Source of the DNA: Escherichia coli
Lineage (GTDB): Bacteria; Pseudomonadota; Gammaproteobacteria; Enterobacterales; Enterobacteriaceae
DNA length: 64,000 nt
Assembly: GCF_013122565.1 (NCBI RefSeq)
Contig: NZ_CP053258.1
Strand: one strand, 5' to 3'
The position numbers were made by a program, and so were the translations under genes. Numbering within the stretch: the first letter of the stretch is position 1; each line of letters opens with the position of its first letter. Under the pieces are notes generated by a model that did not search any database, was not told where the DNA came from, and worked only from the letters and a program-made list of their open reading frames with translations. Of the stretch, positions 774 to 56,543 are shown in pieces.

Positions 774-1652
774 ATGAGCGACGACAATTCACACAGTAGT
801 GACACGATAAGCAACAAGAAGGGATTTTTCTCCCTGTTACTCAGCCAACTTTTCCACGGTGAACCGAAAAACCGTGACGAACTGCTGGCGCTGATCCGTG
901 ATTCCGGGCAGAACGACCTTATCGACGAAGATACGCGCGATATGCTCGAAGGGGTGATGGACATCGCAGACCAACGCGTCCGCGACATCATGATCCCCCG
1001 CTCCCAGATGATTACCCTGAAACGCAACCAGACGCTGGACGAATGCCTTGATGTCATCATCGAGTCCGCCCACTCACGTTTCCCGGTGATTAGCGAAGAC
1101 AAAGATCACATTGAAGGGATTCTGATGGCGAAAGACTTGCTGCCGTTTATGCGCAGCGATGCTGAAGCCTTCAGCATGGACAAAGTGTTACGTCAGGCGG
1201 TTGTCGTTCCTGAAAGTAAGCGCGTAGACCGGATGCTGAAAGAGTTTCGCTCTCAGCGTTACCACATGGCGATCGTTATTGACGAATTCGGTGGGGTTTC
1301 CGGTCTGGTGACCATTGAAGACATCCTGGAACTGATTGTTGGTGAGATTGAAGACGAATATGACGAAGAAGATGATATCGACTTCCGTCAGCTGAGTCGT
1401 CATACCTGGACCGTGCGCGCACTGGCTTCCATTGAAGACTTCAACGAAGCGTTCGGCACCCACTTTAGCGATGAAGAAGTCGACACCATCGGTGGTCTGG
1501 TGATGCAGGCATTTGGGCATCTTCCGGCGCGTGGCGAAACCATCGACATCGACGGTTACCAGTTCAAAGTGGCGATGGCCGATAGTCGGCGTATTATTCA
1601 GGTTCATGTCAAAATCCCGGATGACTCACCCCAGCCGAAGCTGGATGAATAA
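774..1652 (+). CDS. corC: CorC/YbeX CBS-domain Mg/Co transport accessory protein, 292 aa
   Basis: ORF 774..1652; length and sequence match CorC family (CBS pair plus CorC_HlyC C-terminus). Confidence 0.9.
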
Positions 1653-1676
1653 AACCGAAACTGGATAGATAACTAC

Positions 1677-3215
1677 ATGGCTTTTGCCTCATTAATTGAA
1701 CGCCAGCGCATTCGCCTGCTGCTGGCGTTATTATTCGGTGCCTGCGGAACGCTGGCCTTCTCTCCTTACGATGTCTGGCCTGCGGCGATTATTTCGCTGA
1801 TGGGGCTTCAGGCGTTGACCTTTAACCGTCGTCCACTCCAGTCTGCCGCTATTGGCTTTTGCTGGGGATTTGGCCTCTTTGGCAGCGGTATTAACTGGGT
1901 CTATGTCAGCATCGCGACCTTTGGCGGAATGCCTGGCCCGGTTAACATCTTCCTGGTGGTGCTGCTGGCGGCGTATTTGTCGCTGTATACCGGACTGTTT
2001 GCTGGCGTGCTGTCGCGCCTGTGGCCGAAAACCACCTGGCTGCGCGTGGCGATTGCCGCCCCTGCTCTCTGGCAAGTGACCGAGTTTCTGCGCGGTTGGG
2101 TACTGACCGGCTTCCCGTGGTTACAGTTCGGCTATAGCCAGATTGATGGCCCGTTAAAAGGGCTGGCACCGATAATGGGCGTGGAAGCCATTAACTTCCT
2201 GCTGATGATGGTTAGTGGCCTGCTGGCACTGGCGTTGGTCAAACGCAACTGGCGTCCGCTGGTGGTGGCCGTCGTGCTGTTTGCCCTACCCTTCCCGCTG
2301 CGTTACATCCAATGGTTTACCCCGCAACCGGAGAAAACCATTCAGGTTTCGATGGTTCAGGGCGATATTCCGCAATCGCTGAAATGGGACGAAGGCCAGC
2401 TTCTTAATACGCTGAAGATTTACTACAACGCAACGGCACCGCTGATGGGCAAATCATCGTTGATTATCTGGCCGGAGTCGGCGATAACCGATCTGGAAAT
2501 TAATCAGCAACCGTTCCTCAAAGCACTGGACGGTGAGTTGCGCGAGAAAGGGAGCTCGCTGGTAACCGGGATTGTTGACGCGCGTCTCAATAAGCAGAAC
2601 CGCTACGATACCTACAACACCATCATCACGCTGGGTAAAGGTGCACCGTACAGCTACGAATCAGCCGATCGCTATAACAAAAACCATCTGGTGCCGTTTG
2701 GCGAGTTTGTCCCGCTCGAGTCGATTCTGCGTCCGTTAGCACCGTTCTTTGATCTGCCGATGTCGTCGTTCAGCCGTGGGCCATATATCCAGCCGCCGCT
2801 GTCGGCAAATGGTATTGAGCTTACTGCGGCTATTTGCTATGAGATCATTCTTGGCGAGCAAGTGCGTGATAACTTCCGCCCGGATACCGACTACCTGCTG
2901 ACTATCTCCAATGATGCATGGTTTGGTAAGTCTATTGGTCCATGGCAGCACTTCCAGATGGCGCGTATGCGTGCGTTGGAGCTGGCGCGCCCATTGCTGC
3001 GTAGTACCAACAACGGCATTACGGCGGTGATTGGCCCGCAGGGTGAGATTCAGGCGATGATCCCGCAGTTCACCCGCGAGGTGCTAACCACTAATGTGAC
3101 ACCGACCACCGGACTCACACCGTATGCACGTACCGGCAACTGGCCGCTGTGGGTGCTGACGGTGCTATTTGGTTTTGCCGCTGTGTTGATGAGTCTGCGT
3201 CAACGACGTAAATAA
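1677..3215 (+). CDS. lnt: Apolipoprotein N-acyltransferase, 512 aa
   Basis: ORF 1677..3215; N-terminal TM segments; C-terminal CN-hydrolase domain with E (WPESA), K ([10 protein letters not shown]), C (AAICYEI) triad. Confidence 0.95.
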
Positions 3216-3314
3216 TCCCTTCTTATCGTGCCGGAATACATCCCGTATTTCGGCACGCTCACCGGATGCGGCATCAGTGCATTATCCGGATAACAATATT
3301 CTCCTATCCAACTT

Positions 3315-3330
3315 TGGCACATCTATTGCT
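3315..3330 (+). promoter_or_regulatory. Candidate sigma-54 (-24/-12) promoter element TGGCAC-N5-TTGCT upstream of gltI
   Basis: Exact consensus-spaced GG/GC element read at 3315-3330, about 280 nt upstream of gltI ATG. Confidence 0.4.
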
Positions 3331-3611
3331 TTGTTATACAAGGCAAAGCTTGAACCAGCATCAGTACAACCCGGTTGCACCACAGCAATCCACCGGTAGC
3401 ACCAAAAGAGTGCATTTTAAGAATTTTGCTTCGGAATGGTGCGGCGCACCTCGCAAAAACAAACAATAAAACATCAATATCTTTACATTTAGCCAAACTA
3501 AATGTTACCTAACAGGCACAACACTGCACAATAAAGTTGCAGACGATAACAACACAAACACTCACAACGGGTATCCATGCGTTCTTAACGCAGAAGATAA
3601 AGGAGTTGGAT

Positions 3612-4520
3612 ATGCAATTACGTAAACCTGCCACAGCAATCCTGGCCCTGGCGCTTTCCGCAGGACTGGCACAGGCAGATGACGCCGCCCCGGTAGCGGG
3701 CAGTACGCTGGACAAAATCGCCAAAAACGGCGTGATTGTCGTCGGTCACCGTGAATCTTCAGTACCTTTCTCTTATTACGACAATCAGCAAAAAGTGGTG
3801 GGTTACTCGCAGGATTACTCCAACGCCATTGTTGAAGCAGTGAAAAAGAAACTCAACAAACCGGACTTGCAGGTAAAACTGATTCCGATTACCTCACAAA
3901 ACCGTATTCCGCTGCTGCAAAACGGCACTTTTGATTTTGAATGTGGTTCTACCACCAACAACGTCGAACGCCAAAAACAGGCGGCTTTCTCTGACACTAT
4001 TTTCGTGGTCGGTACGCGCCTGTTGACCAAAAAGGGTGGTGATATCAAAGATTTTGCCGATCTGAAAGGCAAAGCCGTAGTCGTTACTTCCGGCACTACC
4101 TCTGAAGTTTTGCTCAACAAACTGAATGAAGAGCAAAAAATGAATATGCGCATCATCAGCGCCAAAGATCACGGAGACTCTTTCCGTACCCTGGAAAGTG
4201 GTCGTGCTGTTGCCTTTATGATGGATGACGCTCTGCTGGCTGGTGAACGTGCGAAAGCGAAGAAACCAGACAACTGGGATATCGTCGGCAAGCCGCAGTC
4301 TCAGGAAGCCTACGGTTGTATGTTGCGTAAAGACGATCCGCAGTTCAAAAAGCTGATGGATGACACCATCGCGCAGGTGCAGACCTCCGGTGAAGCGGAA
4401 AAATGGTTTGATAAATGGTTCAAAAATCCAATTCCGCCGAAAAACCTGAACATGAATTTCGAACTGTCAGACGAAATGAAAGCACTGTTCAAAGAACCGA
4501 ATGACAAGGCACTGAACTAA
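3612..4520 (+). CDS. gltI: Glutamate/aspartate ABC transporter periplasmic binding protein, 302 aa
   Basis: Internal ATG at 3612 preceded by AGGAG (3601-3605); signal peptide MQLRKPATAILALALSAGLAQA; longer ORF from 3537 rejected. Confidence 0.9.
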   Translation: MQLRKPATAILALALSAGLAQADDAAPVAGSTLDKIAKNGVIVVGHRESSVPFSYYDNQQKVVGYSQDYSNAIVEAVKKKLNKPDLQVKLIPITSQNRIPLLQNGTFDFECGSTTNNVERQKQAAFSDTIFVVGTRLLTKKGGDIKDFADLKGKAVVVTSGTTSEVLLNKLNEEQKMNMRIISAKDHGDSFRTLESGRAVAFMMDDALLAGERAKAKKPDNWDIVGKPQSQEAYGCMLRKDDPQFKKLMDDTIAQVQTSGEAEKWFDKWFKNPIPPKNLNMNFELSDEMKALFKEPNDKALN

Positions 4521-19171: not shown

Positions 19172-19753
19172 GTGCGATATCTGGCAACATTGTTGTTATC
19201 TCTGGCGGTGTTAATCACCGCCGGGTGTGGCTGGCATCTGCGTGATACCACGCAGGTTCCTTCCACTATGAAGGTCATGATTCTGGACTCAGGCGATCCG
19301 AACGGGCCATTAAGCCGTGCGGTGCGTAACCAGTTACGTCTGAATGGTGTCGAGTTGCTTGATAAAGAAACCACGCGTAAGGACGTTCCATCCCTGCGTT
19401 TGGGTGCTGTATCAATCTCGCAGGATACCGCGTCGGTTTTCCGTAATGGTCAAACTGCGGAATATCAGATGGTGATGACTGTTAGCGCGTCGGTATTGAT
19501 TCCTGGACGAGATATCTACCCGATTAGCGCCAAAGTCTTCCGTTCGTTCTTCGATAACCCGCAAATGGCGTTAGCGAAAGATAACGAGCAGGAAATGATC
19601 ATTAAAGAGATGTACGACCGTGCTGCCGAACAGCTGATTCGTAAGCTACCAAGCATCCGTGCTGCGGATATTCGTTCCGACGAAGAACAGACGTCGACCA
19701 CAACGGATACTCCGGCAACGCCTGCACGCGTCTCCACCACGCTGGGTAACTGA
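19172..19753 (+). CDS. lptE: LPS assembly lipoprotein LptE, 193 aa
   Basis: GTG start at 19172; lipobox LITAGCG; 14 nt after leuS stop. Confidence 0.9.
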
Positions 19754-32541: not shown

Positions 32542-33336
32542 TCATAATAATTGCGGCGGCGCAAAGCGACGGTTGTTTAAGACGGGCAGTTGCGCGCGCA
32601 CCTGACGCACACGTTCGGGCGTCACTTCCGCCATAATGAGTGCAGGCATTTCTGACGCTGCCGCAATGGTGACGCCAAAGGGATCTATAATCCGGCTTTG
32701 CCCGATATTTTTGTTCCCGCACTCCCCCGCCGCCACCATATAACAGGTGGTATCCAGCGCACGAGCGGCAAGCAACGTTGACCAGTGATGCTCTTTGAGC
32801 GGCCCGCGAACCCAGGCGGCAGGAAGTACCAGGATTTCAGCTCCCTGTAATGCCTGTGCCAGCGCCAGCTCTGGAAAGCGTAAGTCATAACAGGTCATCA
32901 GACCGACCTTCATCCCTTCCACCTCCAGTAATGGAGCTATTTCATTACCAGCATCAACATGGCGTGATTCCTGAATGGCAAATGCATCATAGAGATGAAG
33001 TTTGGCATAACGGGCAACGATGTTTCCTGCCTGTAGCGCCACCAGCATATTCCATGCGCGCCCCGGCGTTGAAGGAACATGAATCGTCAGAATTGTCGTC
33101 ATCATGTTACGTTTACTTTCTCGCCGTAAACGTCCGAGGAATTCGCCTTCCAGCAGCTGTGCTGATTTAACCGATAGATCTGCATCATGATCATCGCGCG
33201 CCAGCAATGCTTCCGGCAGGACAAACAGCGATACGTCGTTTTCCGCCGCCTGCGCCATCAACGAGGCACAAATCTCAGCGTTCTTTTCCCACACAGATGT
33301 AACAGCAAACTGTCCTGCAGCAACCAACATTGCCAC
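32542..33336 (-). CDS. ybeM: C-N hydrolase (nitrilase superfamily) amidase YbeM, 264 aa, reading frame intact
   Basis: Uninterrupted ORF; E (LPE), K (YAKLHLYD), C ([10 protein letters not shown]) catalytic-triad contexts present. Confidence 0.8.
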
Positions 33337-33422: not shown

Positions 33423-33806
33423 GTGTTACAACTTCTTTTAGCAGTTTTTATTGGCGGTGGTACGGGAAGCGTGGCGAGATGGCTGTTAAGTATGCGATTT
33501 AACCCGCTGCATCAGGCGATTCCGTTGGGGACGCTGGCTGCAAACCTGATTGGGGCATTCATCATAGGAATGGGATTCGCCTGGTTCAGCAGGATGACAA
33601 ACATTGATCCCGTGTGGAAAGTATTAATCACCACCGGATTTTGTGGCGGTCTAACAACCTTCTCAACATTTTCGGCAGAAGTGGTGTTTTTGTTACAAGA
33701 GGGTCGCTTTGGCTGGGCATTACTGAACGTTTTCGTCAACCTTCTGGGGTCTTTTGCCATGACCGCACTGGCATTCTGGCTGTTTTCGGCCTCAACCGCA
33801 CACTAA
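33423..33806 (+). CDS. crcB: Fluoride channel CrcB/FluC, 127 aa
   Basis: Small 4-TM protein; recognised sequence. Confidence 0.9.
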
Positions 33807-33811
33807 AGACC

Positions 33812-33840
33812 AAAAAAAACCCGCTGATTAAGCGGGTTTT
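33812..33840. terminator. Bidirectional intrinsic terminator between convergent crcB and cspE
   Basis: A8-CCCGCT-GATTA-AGCGGG-T4; reads as hairpin plus T-run on both strands. Confidence 0.7.
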
Positions 33841-33859
33841 GAATTCTTGCTGACGTATC

Positions 33860-34069
33860 TTACAGAGCGATTACGTTTGCAGCAGAAGGGCCTTTGGCAC
33901 CGTTAGTGATTTCGAACTCTACACGCTGACCTTCAGCAAGAGTTTTAAAACCATTAGTCTGGATTGCAGAGAAGTGTACGAACACGTCTTTGCTGCCGTC
34001 TTCCGGAGTAATGAAACCGAATCCTTTGGACTCATTAAACCACTTAACGTTACCTTTAATCTTAGACAT
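33860..34069 (-). CDS. cspE: Cold-shock-domain protein CspE, 69 aa
   Basis: Start at internal ATG ([20 protein letters not shown]…); RNP1 motif GFGFI. Confidence 0.95.
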
Positions 34070-34243
34070 CAAAATTACCTTTACATGAAAAATAGACACA
34101 AATGCTGTGTCGGTTACCAGTACACCAATTGTGGTACGCTTTGTCCAGTGCAACTTTACTAAAAAGTGATAAAAGTCGCGTTATTTTTGATGTTAATTAT
34201 TTTACTCATTGATTTTAAAGAGTTTACTAAAATTTCATTTGTC

Positions 34244-34804
34244 TCAAAACTGAAAGCGCATCCAGGCAAAGTACACATTGCCATTGTTGTAGGTACCCGG
34301 AATGTAGGTCATCTGAAAAGTCACTGGACCATAACCCACGGAGGCCAATGGCAGTAGAACCGGGAGAGGGATGTAATTCCAGTTATCGCGCGCCGTTACG
34401 CCGGCGGTGAATCCCAGACCTAAATGAAAATTTTCATCCGCCAGCGGTCGCCAGGTACTTTCCCATCCGTATCCGGCAATCGGTTCCCATTTGTTCCACG
34501 AGTCCTTAAATGCCATGGCATACAGGCCATGCCAGTTTCCTTTTTCATCCCAACGCGACTGACCAAAACCGCCACCCCACGGTCGCTCGTTATAGCGATC
34601 GGTTTTTTCTTTGTCGTAAGCGAAACGTGCATGCCAGGTGATGGCAGGAATATATAAATCATAATGTTCAGGCTGTTGCCAGGTTTGTGCAATATTTTCT
34701 CTAAACGTTGTCATCCACTCATCTGCGTTAGCAAAAACTTTACCAACGCTGATTAACTGAATAAAAACAAAGGAAAATATAGCGACATATTTACTCACGT
34801 TCAT
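34244..34804 (-). CDS. pagP: Lipid A palmitoyltransferase PagP, 186 aa
   Basis: Start at internal ATG ([14 protein letters not shown]…); signal peptide plus beta-barrel-like sequence. Confidence 0.9.
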
Positions 34805-35290
34805 TTGTGACCATAAAACATTTATCAAAAATCTACTACTAGCATAGCAAAGCTACAATTAACATAACCTTAATAGCTCCAACATAAAGAATAATCTGAA
34901 TAGCTGCTCTATTTATTTCCGCTTGTTTAAGTTAAATATTTCCGCGCATCGATTTAAAATGATACATCGTTTTCTGCGATGGGAATAGTCATAAAAGAAA
35001 AAGCAAGTTATTACTGATAACAAAATGCAATCAAGAAAAAAATGACTTATTTTTTAATAAGATACAAAAAATTATCTTAACAAAGAATATATTATATATC
35101 GTCAACCCACGCCCATTATAGATTATTTTTTGAGCACACAACCGCAGCTAACACCATTGCAATTAACAAATTTGCATCAATCTACCATCAATTTACACAC
35201 ATTATTATGTGATAATTGCCAACTGTTAAATATGCGTTTTGTTATCTATGTATAAAAACAGCAACTTCAATGTCTTAATGGCAGTTTTTC

Positions 35291-35304
35291 TTGATTTTAA
35301 TCAG
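35291..35304 (+). promoter_or_regulatory. FNR-like site TTGAT-N4-ATCAG upstream of dcuC
   Basis: One mismatch to TTGAT-N4-ATCAA; about 95 nt upstream of dcuC ATG. Confidence 0.45.
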
Positions 35305-35393
35305 CATTCACCGCCAATTTATTGGGCATATTTTTTCCTTAAGTTTTAGGAATTTTTTATTATTTACTTTGGGGCCTGGAGACAGGAAAAATT

Positions 35394-36779
35394 ATGCTGA
35401 CATTCATTGAACTCCTTATTGGGGTTGTGGTTATTGTGGGTGTAGCTCGCTACATCATTAAAGGGTATTCCGCCACTGGTGTGTTATTTGTCGGTGGCCT
35501 GTTATTGCTGATTATCAGTGCCATTATGGGGCACAAAGTGTTACCGTCCAGCCAGGCTTCAACAGGCTACAGCGCCACGGATATCGTTGAATACGTTAAA
35601 ATATTGCTAATGAGCCGCGGCGGCGACCTCGGCATGATGATTATGATGCTGTGTGGCTTTGCCGCTTACATGACCCATATCGGCGCGAATGATATGGTGG
35701 TCAAGCTGGCGTCAAAACCATTGCAGTATATTAACTCCCCTTACCTGCTGATGATTGCCGCCTATTTTGTTGCCTGTCTGATGTCTTTGGCCGTCTCTTC
35801 CGCAACCGGTCTGGGCGTTTTGCTGATGGCTACTCTGTTTCCGGTGATGGTAAACGTTGGTATCAGTCGTGGCGCAGCAGCTGCCATTTGTGCCTCCCCG
35901 GCGGCGATTATTCTCGCACCGACTTCAGGGGATGTGGTGCTGGCGGCACAGGCTTCCGAAATGTCGCTGATTGACTTCGCCTTCAAAACGACGCTGCCTA
36001 TCTCAATTGCTGCAATTATCGGCATGGCGATCGCCCACTTCTTCTGGCAACGTTATCTGGATAAAAAAGAGCACATTTCTCATGAAATGTTAGATGTCAG
36101 TGAAATCACCACCACTGCTCCTGCGTTTTATGCCATTTTGCCGTTCACGCCGATCATCGGTGTACTGATTTTTGACGGTAAATGGGGTCCGCAATTACAC
36201 ATCATCACTATTCTGGTGATTTGTATGCTGATTGCCTCCATTCTGGAGTTTCTCCGCAGCTTTAATACCCAGAAAGTTTTCTCTGGTCTGGAAGTGGCTT
36301 ATCGCGGGATGGCAGATGCGTTTGCTAACGTGGTGATGCTGCTGGTTGCCGCTGGGGTATTCGCTCAGGGGCTTAGCACCATCGGCTTTATTCAAAGTCT
36401 GATTTCTATCGCTACCTCGTTTGGTTCGGCGAGTATCATCCTGATGCTGGTATTGGTGATTCTGACAATGCTGGCGGCAGTCACGACCGGTTCAGGCAAT
36501 GCGCCGTTTTATGCGTTTGTTGAGATGATCCCGAAACTGGCGCACTCTTCCGGCATTAACCCGGCGTATTTGACTATCCCGATGCTGCAGGCGTCAAACC
36601 TGGGCCGTACCCTTTCGCCCGTTTCTGGCGTAGTCGTTGCGGTTGCCGGGATGGCGAAAATCTCACCATTTGAAGTCGTAAAACGCACCTCGGTGCCGGT
36701 GCTTGTTGGGCTGGTGATTGTTATCGTTGCTACAGAGCTGATGGTGCCAGGAACGGCAGCAGCGGTCACAGGCAAGTAA
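35394..36779 (+). CDS. dcuC: Anaerobic C4-dicarboxylate transporter DcuC, 461 aa
   Basis: Polytopic membrane protein; recognised sequence. Confidence 0.9.
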   Translation: MLTFIELLIGVVVIVGVARYIIKGYSATGVLFVGGLLLLIISAIMGHKVLPSSQASTGYSATDIVEYVKILLMSRGGDLGMMIMMLCGFAAYMTHIGANDMVVKLASKPLQYINSPYLLMIAAYFVACLMSLAVSSATGLGVLLMATLFPVMVNVGISRGAAAAICASPAAIILAPTSGDVVLAAQASEMSLIDFAFKTTLPISIAAIIGMAIAHFFWQRYLDKKEHISHEMLDVSEITTTAPAFYAILPFTPIIGVLIFDGKWGPQLHIITILVICMLIASILEFLRSFNTQKVFSGLEVAYRGMADAFANVVMLLVAAGVFAQGLSTIGFIQSLISIATSFGSASIILMLVLVILTMLAAVTTGSGNAPFYAFVEMIPKLAHSSGINPAYLTIPMLQASNLGRTLSPVSGVVVAVAGMAKISPFEVVKRTSVPVLVGLVIVIVATELMVPGTAAAVTGK

Positions 36780-53672: not shown

Positions 53673-54575
53673 ATGGCCAATCTCTACGACCTGAAAAAGT
53701 TCGACTTAAATCTTCTTGTCATCTTTGAGTGCATTTATAAACACTTAAGCATAAGCAAGGCTGCTGAGTCATTATATATCACTCCATCAGCAGTGAGTCA
53801 GTCGTTACAACGCTTACGTGCGCAATTTAATGACCCTTTATTCATTCGCTCAGGAAAAGGTATCACGCCAACTACGACAGGGTTAAATTTACACAATCAC
53901 CTTGAGAAAAACCTCAGAGGTCTTGAGCAAACAATCAATCTTGTTAATAAATCGGAAGTAAAGAAAAATTTTATTATCTACGGTCCTCAGCTCATCTCCT
54001 GTTCTCATAACCGCATGCTGATCCGCTGCCTACGGCAAGATACCTCGGTCGAGATTGAGTGCCATGACACACTTATTTCAGCCGAGAATGCTGAAGAACT
54101 GTTGGTTCATCGCAAAGCCGATCTGGTGATCACTCAAATGCCAGTGATCAGTCGTTCCGTCATTTGTATGCCATTGCATACGATTCGTAATACCCTAATT
54201 TGTAGTAATAAACATCCCCGGATTACAGATACCAGTACTTACGAACAAATTATGGAAGAAGAGTTCACCCAATTAATTTCCAAATCATCGGGGCTTGATG
54301 ACATTCAAATGGAAATAGACGAGAGGTTTATAAATCGTAAAATTGCCTTTCGTGGCTCCTCTTTATTGGCGATCATAAATAGCATTGCGATTACAGATTT
54401 GCTAGGAATAGTTCCCTTTGAACTTTATGAATCCCACCAAGAATCTCTTAATTTAAAGGAAATAAAACTAGAGCACCCCCTACCCTTGGTTAAGCTTTAC
54501 ATTTGTTACAACAAGACTTCTCTAAACAACCTGGCATTCTCACGATTCATTGACAGATTGAATGATAATTCTTGA
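53673..54575 (+). CDS. ybdO: LysR-family transcriptional regulator YbdO, 300 aa
   Basis: N-terminal HTH (ISKAAESLYITPSAVSQSLQRLR); AT-rich gene. Confidence 0.85.
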   Translation: MANLYDLKKFDLNLLVIFECIYKHLSISKAAESLYITPSAVSQSLQRLRAQFNDPLFIRSGKGITPTTTGLNLHNHLEKNLRGLEQTINLVNKSEVKKNFIIYGPQLISCSHNRMLIRCLRQDTSVEIECHDTLISAENAEELLVHRKADLVITQMPVISRSVICMPLHTIRNTLICSNKHPRITDTSTYEQIMEEEFTQLISKSSGLDDIQMEIDERFINRKIAFRGSSLLAIINSIAITDLLGIVPFELYESHQESLNLKEIKLEHPLPLVKLYICYNKTSLNNLAFSRFIDRLNDNS

Positions 54576-54720
54576 TATATAGATTCAGAGAGAGGCTACA
54601 TCCTTTCATTTCTATTCATTTCATCAATAAAAAATAAAATACTCTACCTTACAGGACTTACTTTATAATTAACGACCTTATCTCACTGATCACCCTGTAA
54701 CGTTCAGAGAGCGTATTTAG

Positions 54721-55941
54721 ATGTCTATTTATAAAATTCCTCTTCCACTCAATATTCTGGAAGCTGCACGAGAGCGTATTACCTGGACACTCAATACCCT
54801 ACCCCGCGTTTGTGTCTCATTTTCTGGCGGCAAAGACTCTGGTTTAATGCTGCATCTGACAGCCGACCTTGCCCGACAAATGGGCAAAAAAATCTGCGTT
54901 TTGTTTATCGACTGGGAAGCGCAGTTCTCATGCACTATCAACTATGTTCAGTCACTACGCGAGTTTTACGCCGATGTCATCGAAGAGTTTTACTGGGTTG
55001 CGCTCCCGCTTACGACGCAAAATTCCCTTTCACAATACCAACCCGAATGGCAGTGCTGGGAACCTGATGTCGAATGGGTGCGTCAGCCCCCGCAAGATGC
55101 GATAACCGATCCTGACTTTTTCTCCTTTTACCAGCCAGGCATGACCTTCGAACAATTTGTACGTGAGTTTGCCGAATGGTTTTCACAAAAACGTCCGGCG
55201 GCGATGATGATCGGCATCCGTGCGGATGAGTCCTACAATCGTTTTGTCGCCATCGCCAGTTTAAATAAACAACGTTTTGCCGACGATAAACCCTGGACTA
55301 CGGCCGCGCCAGGCGGTCATAGCTGGTACATATACCCCATCTACGACTGGAAAGTCGCCGATATCTGGACCTGGTATGCTAAAAACCAAAGCCTCTGTAA
55401 CCCACTGTATAATCTGATGTATCAGGCAGGTGTCCCTCTGCGTCATATGCGAATTTGCGAACCTTTTGGCCCGGAGCAACGGCAAGGATTATGGCTCTAT
55501 CACGTCATCGAACCGGATCGCTGGGCGGCCATGTGCGCACGAGTCAGCGGAGTAAAAAGTGGCGGCATTTACGCCGGACATGACAACCATTTTTATGGTC
55601 ATCGTAAAATCCTCAAGCCGGAACATTTAGACTGGCAGGAGTATGCATTATTGCTACTCAGCAGCATGCCGGTGAAAACAGCTGAACATTACCGTAATAA
55701 AATCGCCATTTATTTGCACTGGTATCAGAAAAAAGGCATCGAGGTTCCACAAACCCAACAAGGGGACATTGGCGCGAAAGATATCCCCTCCTGGCGGCGA
55801 ATATGCAAAGTTTTACTCAACAACGATTACTGGTGCCGGGCATTATCATTTAGCCCCACAAAAGCGAAGAATTATCAGCGTTATAACGAACGGATAAAAG
55901 GAAAACGTCAGGAATGGGGGATACTATGCAACAACGATTAA
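54721..55941 (+). CDS. ybdN: PP-loop / PAPS-reductase-like protein YbdN, 406 aa
   Basis: N-terminal PP-loop SFSGGKDS; ORF 54721..55941. Confidence 0.85.
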   Translation: MSIYKIPLPLNILEAARERITWTLNTLPRVCVSFSGGKDSGLMLHLTADLARQMGKKICVLFIDWEAQFSCTINYVQSLREFYADVIEEFYWVALPLTTQNSLSQYQPEWQCWEPDVEWVRQPPQDAITDPDFFSFYQPGMTFEQFVREFAEWFSQKRPAAMMIGIRADESYNRFVAIASLNKQRFADDKPWTTAAPGGHSWYIYPIYDWKVADIWTWYAKNQSLCNPLYNLMYQAGVPLRHMRICEPFGPEQRQGLWLYHVIEPDRWAAMCARVSGVKSGGIYAGHDNHFYGHRKILKPEHLDWQEYALLLLSSMPVKTAEHYRNKIAIYLHWYQKKGIEVPQTQQGDIGAKDIPSWRRICKVLLNNDYWCRALSFSPTKAKNYQRYNERIKGKRQEWGILCNND

Positions 55942-56543
55942 CGCAGGATTTAACGCAATTTCTCGCCAGCTTGCCGGAAGACGATCGCATCAAAGCGATT
56001 AATGAAATCCGCATGGCGATCCATCAGGTAAGTCCTTTTCGGGAAGAGCCGGTGGATTGTGTTTTGTGGGTCAAAAATGATCAGCTTGTGCCAAATGATT
56101 ACAACCCAAACAACGTGGCACCGCCCGAGAAAAAATTGCTGAAAAAATCCATTGAAACTGATGGTTTTACCCAACCCATTGTGGTGACCAACACGACAGC
56201 CAATTCACTTGAAATCGTTGATGGTTTTCACCGCCATGAAATCGGTAAAGGATCATCATCATTAAAACTACGCTTAAAAGGTTATTTACCGGTGACCTGC
56301 CTGGAGGGGACGCGTAATCAGCGCATCGCCGCGACTATTCGTCATAATCGCGCTCGTGGACGCCATCAAATCACCGCCATGTCGGAAATCGTCCGTGAAC
56401 TTAGCCTGTTGGGATGGGACGATAATAAAATTGGCAAAGAGCTGGGAATGGACAGCGACGAAGTGCTGCGCCTGAAGCAAATTAACGGCCTGCAAGAGTT
56501 GTTTGCCGACCGTCAATATTCCCGCGCCTGGACTGTCAAATAA
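55914..56543 (+). CDS. ybdM: ParB/sulfiredoxin-like domain protein YbdM, 209 aa
   Basis: DGFHR motif; 28-nt overlap with ybdN. Confidence 0.85.
   Translation: MGDTMQQRLTQDLTQFLASLPEDDRIKAINEIRMAIHQVSPFREEPVDCVLWVKNDQLVPNDYNPNNVAPPEKKLLKKSIETDGFTQPIVVTNTTANSLEIVDGFHRHEIGKGSSSLKLRLKGYLPVTCLEGTRNQRIAATIRHNRARGRHQITAMSEIVRELSLLGWDDNKIGKELGMDSDEVLRLKQINGLQELFADRQYSRAWTVK

Follow-up and report, generated by a model that had tools for sequence, protein, structure and literature searches.

The AT-rich spacer between the divergent genes pagP and dcuC of Escherichia coli: a multi-input, H-NS-bound control region known from K-12, with a hypervariable core

Results

The pagP–dcuC locus

The window, that is, the whole 64-kb stretch of DNA analysed here, is an E. 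coli chromosome segment collinear with 627-692 kb of K-12. At the locus under study, two genes are transcribed away from each other and from a common spacer:

34244..34804, minus strand: pagP coding sequence (lipid A palmitoyltransferase), 186 aa, ATG at 34804
35394..36779, plus strand: dcuC coding sequence (anaerobic C4-dicarboxylate transporter), 461 aa, ATG at 35394
34805..35393, no strand: whole pagP–dcuC divergent spacer, 589 bp, 29.4% G+C

The encoded proteins are 99.5% (PagP) and 100% (DcuC) identical to those of K-12, and the K-12 orthologue of the spacer (655,969-656,556) contains no annotated feature. An earlier sequence-only reading of this DNA had described the spacer as a divergent, AT-rich and unusually long region. 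This description stands except for the length, which is 589 bp and not 565 bp; the smaller figure derives from a longer TTG-started open reading frame (ORF) ending at 34828, while the RefSeq annotation uses the ATG.

With a G+C content of 29.4%, against 50.5% for the window, the spacer is the lowest-G+C 589-bp stretch in the 64 kb. An equally low G+C was found in 0.11% of the 589-bp segments, every one of them overlapping the spacer, and the 100-bp block 35005-35104 goes down to 18%. In the collinear 65 kb of K-12, the spacer (588 bp) is the longest feature-free gap, being the next ones of 378 and 371 bp. AT content far above the average is maintained across the 589 bp, which is the property looked for in an H-NS region.

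H-NS occupancy and regulatory inputs reported in K-12

The existence of an H-NS-coated, multi-input control region between pagP and dcuC is already published for E. coli K-12. All the experimental occupancy and genetics that we refer to come from this strain, whose version of the central part of the spacer (the core described below) differs from that of the window by 16%. Part of the published coordinates correspond to U00096.2, which are 778 lower than those of NC_000913.3. This offset was checked twice: the position predicted from the window for the FNR motif agrees to within 1 bp with the published one (655,281), and the insH/lnt SELEX peak is also consistent with it.

In U00096.2 coordinates the spacer corresponds to 655,191-655,778, and the two H-NS ChIP-chip peaks described in K-12 (654,590-655,558 and 655,584-656,283; Myers et al. 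2013, PMC3688515 Table S3) together span all of it. In agreement, a genomic SELEX table of K-12 marks the spacer for HNS and RpoD holoenzyme (Shimada et al. 2014, PMC3946193), and deletion of hns derepresses a pagP-lacZ fusion in K-12 (Chalabaev et al. 2014, PMC4147861). The candidate H-NS-type binding region proposed from the sequence is thus borne out by ChIP-chip, SELEX and genetics. Genomic SELEX data of K-12 also place RpoN holoenzyme and NtrC peaks in the spacer; a sigma-54 promoter, sought by eye near pagP because of this RpoN/NtrC peak, gave no GG-N10-GC arrangement.

The proposal of a multi-input control region is equally supported by the published K-12 inputs, which comprise FNR, ArcA, PhoP, EvgA, SlyA and RcsB/GadE. 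Biofilm induction of pagP requires SlyA (PMC4147861), and control of pagP by RcsB/GadE has been described without a mapped site (Szczesny et al. 2018, PMC6106083). Control by PhoP and EvgA is mentioned as a result of others in PMC4147861 and PMC6106083. In an arcA mutant, pagP is down 2.8-fold and dcuC 4.1-fold, and an ArcA site was predicted in the spacer, without ChIP signal (Park et al. 2013, PMC3798270). Taking into account composition, occupancy and genetics, we assign a probability of about 0.8 to the spacer being a shared upstream control region of the two divergently transcribed genes.

Consensus scans of the spacer for SlyA, ArcA, IHF, CRP, NarL, GAD box, EvgA and the H-NS motif gave the same counts as shuffled sequences. 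For the high-affinity H-NS consensus (tCGATAAATT-like, up to 2 mismatches) there were 2 matches vs 2.0 in shuffles. Binding of H-NS does not oblige a high-affinity motif of this type. RcsAB-like boxes (6 vs 1.5) and loose PhoP-like strings (35 vs 24) were somewhat enriched, as expected because of the T/A-rich repeats.

The dcuC-proximal end

Four features were considered at this end of the spacer:

35291..35304, plus strand: FNR box TTGATTTTAATCAG, 9/10 consensus bases, 90 bp upstream of the dcuC ATG
35327..35332, plus strand: predicted dcuC -10 hexamer CATATT, with a predicted start at about 35339-35342
35335..35352, no strand: palindrome TTCCTTAAGTTTTAGGAA, at the predicted dcuC start / 5' leader
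35159..35219, no strand: repeat element, a 13-nt inverted repeat (35159-35171 / 35207-35219) around an 11-bp tandem repeat

The FNR-like site had been noticed near dcuC from the sequence, and both its conservation and published K-12 ChIP data establish that it is real. By count the box is not improbable, since one-mismatch matches number 8 in the 64-kb window vs 2.7 expected. The TTGAT and ATCAG cores are invariant in an alignment of 10 genomes from five genera, with the exception of GTGAT in S. arizonae, and, of 45 enterobacterial spacers, 41 contain TTGAT-N4-ATCAN, which in 40 of them is located 85-99 nt away from the dcuC ATG. The FNR ChIP-seq/ChIP-chip peak assigned to dcuC/pagP in K-12 carries the motif CTGATTAAAATCAA at 655,281 (PMC3688515 Tables S5, S6), which is the reverse complement of 35291-35304 in the window. 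The height of this FNR peak is equal in wild type and Δhns ΔstpA K-12 strains (PMC3688515), so that H-NS does not gate FNR here. The same study classes dcuC as directly activated by FNR and reports that, anaerobically, expression in K-12 is 20-fold higher for dcuC and 3.4-fold higher for crcA (pagP) (PMC3688515).

After the FNR box, the alignment shows a block (TTTATTnGGCAyATTTT) that is conserved across genera. In class II activation, the FNR box is centred near -41.5 from the transcription start. If CATATT is the -10 of dcuC, the centre of the box (35297.5) would be near -41.5 and would have the class II position. The palindrome TTCCTTAAGTTTTAGGAA is kept in E. coli, with one polymorphic base in the loop, and is not conserved in Citrobacter; it has 3 mismatches to an EvgA-box consensus. 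The repeat element, whose tandem repeat is CATCAATCTAC / CATCAATTTAC (35175-35196), is about 150 bp upstream of the predicted dcuC start. It hardly varies among 9 E. coli genomes, is recognisable in E. whittamii, Escherichia sp. E1V33 and C. braakii, and may be related to the ArcA site predicted in PMC3798270.

The core of the spacer

Between the sites near each gene, the sequence-only reading had left a stretch of unexplained sequence. It carries no ORF, RNA-structure or motif signal, and in this respect the description holds; we found, in addition, that it is specific to Escherichia and hypervariable:

34955..35145, no strand: Escherichia-specific, hypervariable, extremely AT-rich core, about 190 bp, 18-30% G+C

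In the alignment, Citrobacter, Salmonella, Enterobacter and Klebsiella have gaps opposite the core. Spacers of other genera are typically of 284-470 bp with 29-39% G+C, and those of Escherichia are the longest and most AT-rich among the spacers without large inserts. Variable columns among 9 E. coli genomes amount to 27.7% in the core, where mean pairwise identity is 87%, compared with 9.3% in the pagP-proximal part (34805-34954), 6.8% in the dcuC-proximal part (35146-35393), and 3.7% and 2.3% in 300 bp of pagP and dcuC coding sequence, respectively. Among complete genomes, 4916 of 5376 have a core with 80-90% identity to that of the window and none reaches 95%, whereas identity of the dcuC-proximal part is 95-99% in 5,377 of 5,378. 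Divergence from K-12 is 16.2% in the core vs 2.3% in the window, which places it in the top 0.7% of 190-bp segments.

Several searches gave a negative outcome. None of the ORFs of the core survives intact in all 9 genomes, and an Rfam scan of 33800-35800 (E <= 1) gave no match inside the spacer and returned only the cspA-type leader of cspE. Sliding RNA folds on both strands showed z-scores of -2.6 to -3.1 only on the plus strand at 35005-35174, which we attribute to short AT palindromes. The promoter scan of the spacer yielded fewer promoter-like sites than shuffles, and the terminator scan one weak hairpin per strain, which was not common between strains. The core is single-copy in E. coli genomes, which rules out a repeat family or mobile element. 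The possibility of a gene remnant, or of a relative of the inserts present in longer spacers of other genera, was also discarded, as tblastn/blastn against these inserts matched the shared FNR/promoter block alone, without similarity to the core.

Most likely, the core is either an H-NS binding platform or a drifting spacer, and present data cannot separate a compositional role from neutral AT-biased drift. In its strict form, the second option says that the core is functionless filler, an old Escherichia insertion or expansion that drifts under AT-biased mutation and is bound by H-NS merely as AT-rich DNA, while the two gene-proximal modules do all the regulation. We consider this possible, although on balance unlikely. 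Other genera, with their 284-470-bp spacers, do without the core, and no motif, ORF or structure is kept in it. Its variability is 3-4 times that of the flanking modules and 8-12 times that of the adjacent coding sequence; despite this high substitution rate, core length is constant to within 1-3 bp among the 9 E. coli genomes. Drift would also have to account for a core (18-30% G+C) far more AT-rich than the other intergenic DNA of the window, in a region where H-NS is bound and pagP is H-NS-silenced in K-12 (PMC3688515, PMC4147861). Insertion sequences speak in both directions: IS1, IS3-family and IS5-like insertions in the spacer are tolerated by natural isolates, but recurrent insertion of IS5 in the spacer under kanamycin selection suggests that disruption alters expression.

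A different possibility, to which we give little credit, is that the core constitutes a rapidly diversifying regulatory module, where lineage versions set H-NS silencing thresholds or encode a variable short transcript (e.g. Ssr31). If this were true, thresholds for pagP, and perhaps dcuC, would differ among lineages via distinct recombining versions, and hypervariability and recurrent IS insertions would reflect selection on lipid A palmitoylation levels.

A small RNA or other short transcript read from the pagP strand in the central part, equivalent to Ssr31 (about 295 nt, predicted in Shigella flexneri), is very improbable. Ssr31 was assigned to the pagP strand of the pagP–dcuC interval and scored 'Yes' in RT-PCR (PMC4782007 Table 1); this evidence is limited to RT-PCR, with neither a Northern blot nor a 5' end, and the same signal would be obtained from read-through or spurious AT-rich transcripts. 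RNA polymerase holoenzymes bind the spacer in vitro, and the pagP strand of the window has a single promoter-like site (35229→35201) together with a single weak terminator-like hairpin (34981→34965); however, this weak pair is lost in K-12, where the -35 is degraded (TTAGCG) and the hairpin gains an A·C mismatch. The fold energy of the candidate transcript is unremarkable (z = -1.3 and +0.6), and Rfam gave no match inside the spacer at E <= 1. Furthermore, within E. coli no other part of the spacer is less conserved than this segment, which is absent outside Escherichia, and the Term-seq tables consulted list no dcuC or pagP 3' ends.

The pagP-proximal end

The following features were considered upstream of pagP:

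34859..34875, minus strand: likely PhoP box TATTAAGGTTATGTTAA, 3 mismatches to (T/G)GTTTA-N5-(T/G)GTTTA
34841..34846, minus strand: predicted pagP -10 hexamer TATGCT, with a predicted start near 34834
34886..34899, no strand: RcsB-box-like candidate AAAGAATAATCTGA, one mismatch to TNRGAN4TCYNA, at about -60 from the predicted pagP start
34924..34940, plus strand: PhoP-like pair TGTTTA-N5-AATATT, TGTTTAAGTTAAATATT, a chance match 120-136 bp upstream of the pagP ATG

The pair at 34924-34940 had been proposed in the sequence-only reading as a weak PhoP-box-like element about 120 bp upstream of pagP, a proposal that we abandon. With a matrix that we derived from 38 PhoP boxes footprinted in Salmonella (PMC3335776 Table 1), the pair scored 0.5 bit against local background, a value equalled or exceeded at 37 spacer positions, vs 29 in shuffles. 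Its second half-site has 4/6 mismatches and its orientation is away from pagP. The first half-site is a strain polymorphism: position 34929 is T in the window, giving a perfect TGTTTA, and C in K-12, and 7 of the 9 E. coli genomes, K-12 included, carry TGTTCA instead of TGTTTA. The two lowest-identity genomes (L087 and L088) have further base changes in the pair, and the alignment shows no conservation of the pair in E. whittamii or Escherichia sp. E1V33. At Salmonella pagP, two PhoP boxes have been footprinted, the second of them listed with a box-to-+1 distance of 126 (PMC3335776), but in view of this score, orientation, polymorphism and lack of conservation we find it hardly credible that 34924-34940 is a functional second, distal box of that kind, even with a perfect first half-site in the window and overlapping registers TTATTTCCGCTTGTTTA at 5-7 bits.

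The PhoP box is likely to be TATTAAGGTTATGTTAA, about 50 bp nearer pagP, an assignment made on position, conservation and agreement with the literature. This is the best pagP-oriented matrix match in the spacer, with 10 bits, a score that alone is not significant because of the AT-rich background, in which 22% of shuffles reach it. All 9 E. coli genomes retain it, L087 and L088 with a single A>G substitution, and its counterpart in E. whittamii is TGTTAAGGTTGTATTTA. When the pagP box was left out of the matrix and the 160 bp upstream of pagP were scanned in 45 enterobacterial species, the best match was at about 51-52 nt from the pagP ATG in most of the spacers, with the form (T/C)GTTAAG-N4-(C/T)ATT(C/A)A. 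In this sense, the crcA PhoP box has been described with 3 mismatches (PMC7667037) and at 32 bp from the start site (PMC2908699), and the centre of TATTAAGGTTATGTTAA is 33 bp from the predicted pagP start at 34834. PhoP binding and PhoP-dependent transcription of K-12 crcA appear as reported results, with reference to other work, in PMC4147861, PMC2908699 and PMC7667037.

The position of the -10 also fits. Between the end of the box (34859) and TATGCT (34846) there are 12 nt, the same spacing as in footprinted promoters of architectures I and II, e.g. phoP and mgtA (PMC3335776 Table 1). TATTAAGGTTATGTTAA has, then, a direct orientation and one of the characteristic box-to--10 distances (11-12 nt or 21-23 nt), as measured to a predicted -10. 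In the alignment, the S. arizonae counterpart of TATGCT is TATTAT, identical in sequence to the -10 mapped for Salmonella pagP. Moreover, the K-12 sigma-70 ChIP-seq peak at 655,742 (U00096.2), ten-fold higher anaerobically (PMC3688515), maps to about 34841 in the window, on the predicted pagP -10.

Regarding other regulators, the alignment shows a block, CATAAAGAATAATC(T/C)GA, kept in Escherichia in the region of the RcsB-like candidate. A loose SlyA-like candidate, TAGCAAAGCTA, was spotted by eye near 34847-34857.

Discussion

Regulators do occupy the pagP–dcuC spacer, as expected for a control region. The sequence-specific sites and the sigma-70 signal, however, lie close to the genes, and the middle is without a conserved site. 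We propose a spacer of three parts: pagP-proximal (34805-34954), core (34955-35145) and dcuC-proximal (35146-35393). The two gene-proximal modules very probably carry the sequence-specific inputs. In this scheme, which we infer as regards both start sites, the class II geometry, the half-sites contacted by PhoP and the role of the core, the pagP-proximal module (about 150 bp) would contain a weak sigma-70 promoter whose -35 position is taken by a degenerate PhoP box. Since the box occupies the -35 position, phosphorylated PhoP could activate pagP in low Mg2+. Candidate sites for counter-silencers would lie upstream (RcsB-like, 34886-34899) and near 34847-34857 (SlyA-like), and the inputs of this module would be PhoP and, probably, RcsB and SlyA. 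The dcuC-proximal module (about 250 bp), with an FNR box placed for class II activation and CATATT as -10, would provide anaerobic induction of dcuC through FNR and, possibly, ArcA. The core together with its AT-rich flanks would offer a long tract for nucleation and spreading of H-NS, which would silence pagP and any spurious AT-rich promoters until SlyA, RcsB/GadE or PhoP counteract it. The contribution of the core would be compositional, extending the H-NS tract, and it would also separate the pagP and dcuC promoters.

The closest system for comparison is K-12 dcuC–pagP (crcA), which represents this very locus: the flanking genes are the same, and the spacer measures 588 bp vs 589 bp in the window. 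The FNR box, the candidate PhoP box, the -10 regions and the 35159-35219 element are identical or nearly so in both. K-12 alone presents a hairpin, GCGCATCGATTAAAGATGATGCGT, and an ATGACA-17-AATTAT promoter-like site, neither of them kept in the window. The pagP promoter of Salmonella enterica (PhoP architecture IV; Zwir et al. 2012, PMC3335776) belongs to an orthologous gene with the same dcuC<>pagP synteny and an AT-rich spacer. They have in common a TGTTAA/TATTAA half-site, and the aligned -10 is TATTAT in Salmonella vs TATGCT in the window. The footprinted Salmonella box, TGTTTA-TAGTT-TGTTAA, is 23 nt from the -10, compared with 12 nt in E. coli; it was previously noted that the best E. 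coli box is one helical turn closer than that of Salmonella (PMC2908699). In S. arizonae the spacer is of 403 bp and lacks the Escherichia core.

The region also resembles the H-NS-silenced class formed by the 750-bp sensory integration region of gadE, bgl, and Salmonella pagC/ugtL, which likewise present a long AT-rich tract occupied by H-NS, SlyA/RcsB-type relief and several converging regulators. Activation of bgl by IS insertion can be likened to the IS insertions found in the pagP–dcuC spacer. Unlike in that class, the tract is common to two divergent core-genome genes, FNR binds one end of the spacer with or without H-NS in K-12, and the consensus predicts no H-NS nucleation site.

Palmitoylation of lipid A by pagP alters antimicrobial peptide resistance, innate immune recognition and biofilm survival, and dcuC exports succinate in fermentation. 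The biology of the region is established, and it serves as a good small-scale example of counter-silencing within the core genome, where H-NS silencing is combined with PhoP, SlyA, RcsB/GadE, FNR and ArcA signals. What is new here is modest. On the one hand, conservation of position across genera makes it possible to pin down the likely PhoP box. On the other hand, the middle of the spacer is lineage-specific, hypervariable and AT-rich, and attracts IS elements. This hypervariable, IS-prone core is the sole part of the region that might repay more study, and its variation could explain strain-to-strain differences in pagP expression.

Variation within the pagP–dcuC spacer

The spacer between the divergent genes pagP (minus strand) and dcuC (plus strand) holds an AT-rich core, 34955-35145, that differs from K-12 by 16%, compared with 2.3% window-wide; only 0.7% of all 190-bp windows diverge this strongly. 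Among E. coli genomes several distinct versions of this core are found, partly mosaic, and both its length and its AT-richness are retained despite the divergence.

Downstream of the core, towards dcuC, we found a repeat element and a palindrome:

35159-35219: 13-nt inverted repeat, GCAATTAACAAAT / ATGTGATAATTGC, flanking an 11-bp tandem repeat, CATCAATCTAC CATCAATTTAC
35335-35352: palindrome TTCCTTAAGTTTTAGGAA, at the inferred dcuC start and 5' leader

The repeat element is almost invariant across E. coli and is still discernible in C. braakii as well as other Escherichia species; it may be the ArcA site that others have predicted. The palindrome has three mismatches to an EvgA-box consensus, and it was not found in the non-Escherichia genera of the alignment.

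Upstream of pagP, the following were observed:

34886-34899: RcsB-box-like string AAAGAATAATCTGA, candidate
34980-34993: RcsB-box-like string TGGGAATAGTCATA, candidate
34864-34878 and 34891-34905: 15-nt direct repeat, ATAACCTTAATAGCT / ATAATCTGAATAGCT, copies 27 bp apart

The direct repeat constitutes a duplication of the upstream half of the candidate PhoP box region. Control of pagP by RcsB/GadE has been published, without a mapped site (PMC6106083).

Other features of the window

Identity to K-12 is 95.6% in the final 12 kb of the window and 98.2% in the remainder. Local divergence peaks occur at 19400-19590 (15% near 19.5 kb) and at 53900-56200 (up to 28% around 54.5 kb), the latter near the citR/ybdN region as placed by collinearity with K-12. 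IS5D, which in K-12 occupies the gltI–lnt interval, is missing from this strain (window about 3505-3512), as read from the K-12 alignment, which jumps across the element of about 1.19 kb. ybeM (deaminated glutathione amidase; 32542-33336, minus strand) is an intact ORF of 264 codons in the window, whereas the K-12 annotation lists it as a pseudogene. A match to the Rfam cspA thermoregulator (33812-34170, minus strand, 126 bits, E = 2e-33) spans cspE together with its leader.

Insertion sequences in the spacer

In some complete E. coli genomes the pagP–dcuC spacer is interrupted by insertion sequences, as in the locus DNA of two natural isolates:

L091 (strain 873.10), spacer at 1492-4206: IS1 and an IS3-family element
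L092 (strain CUPF09), spacer at 1253-3040: ISKpn26 (IS5-like), near pagP

These insertions in natural isolates agree with laboratory evolution under kanamycin, where IS5 inserted recurrently in the same spacer (PMC6307192).
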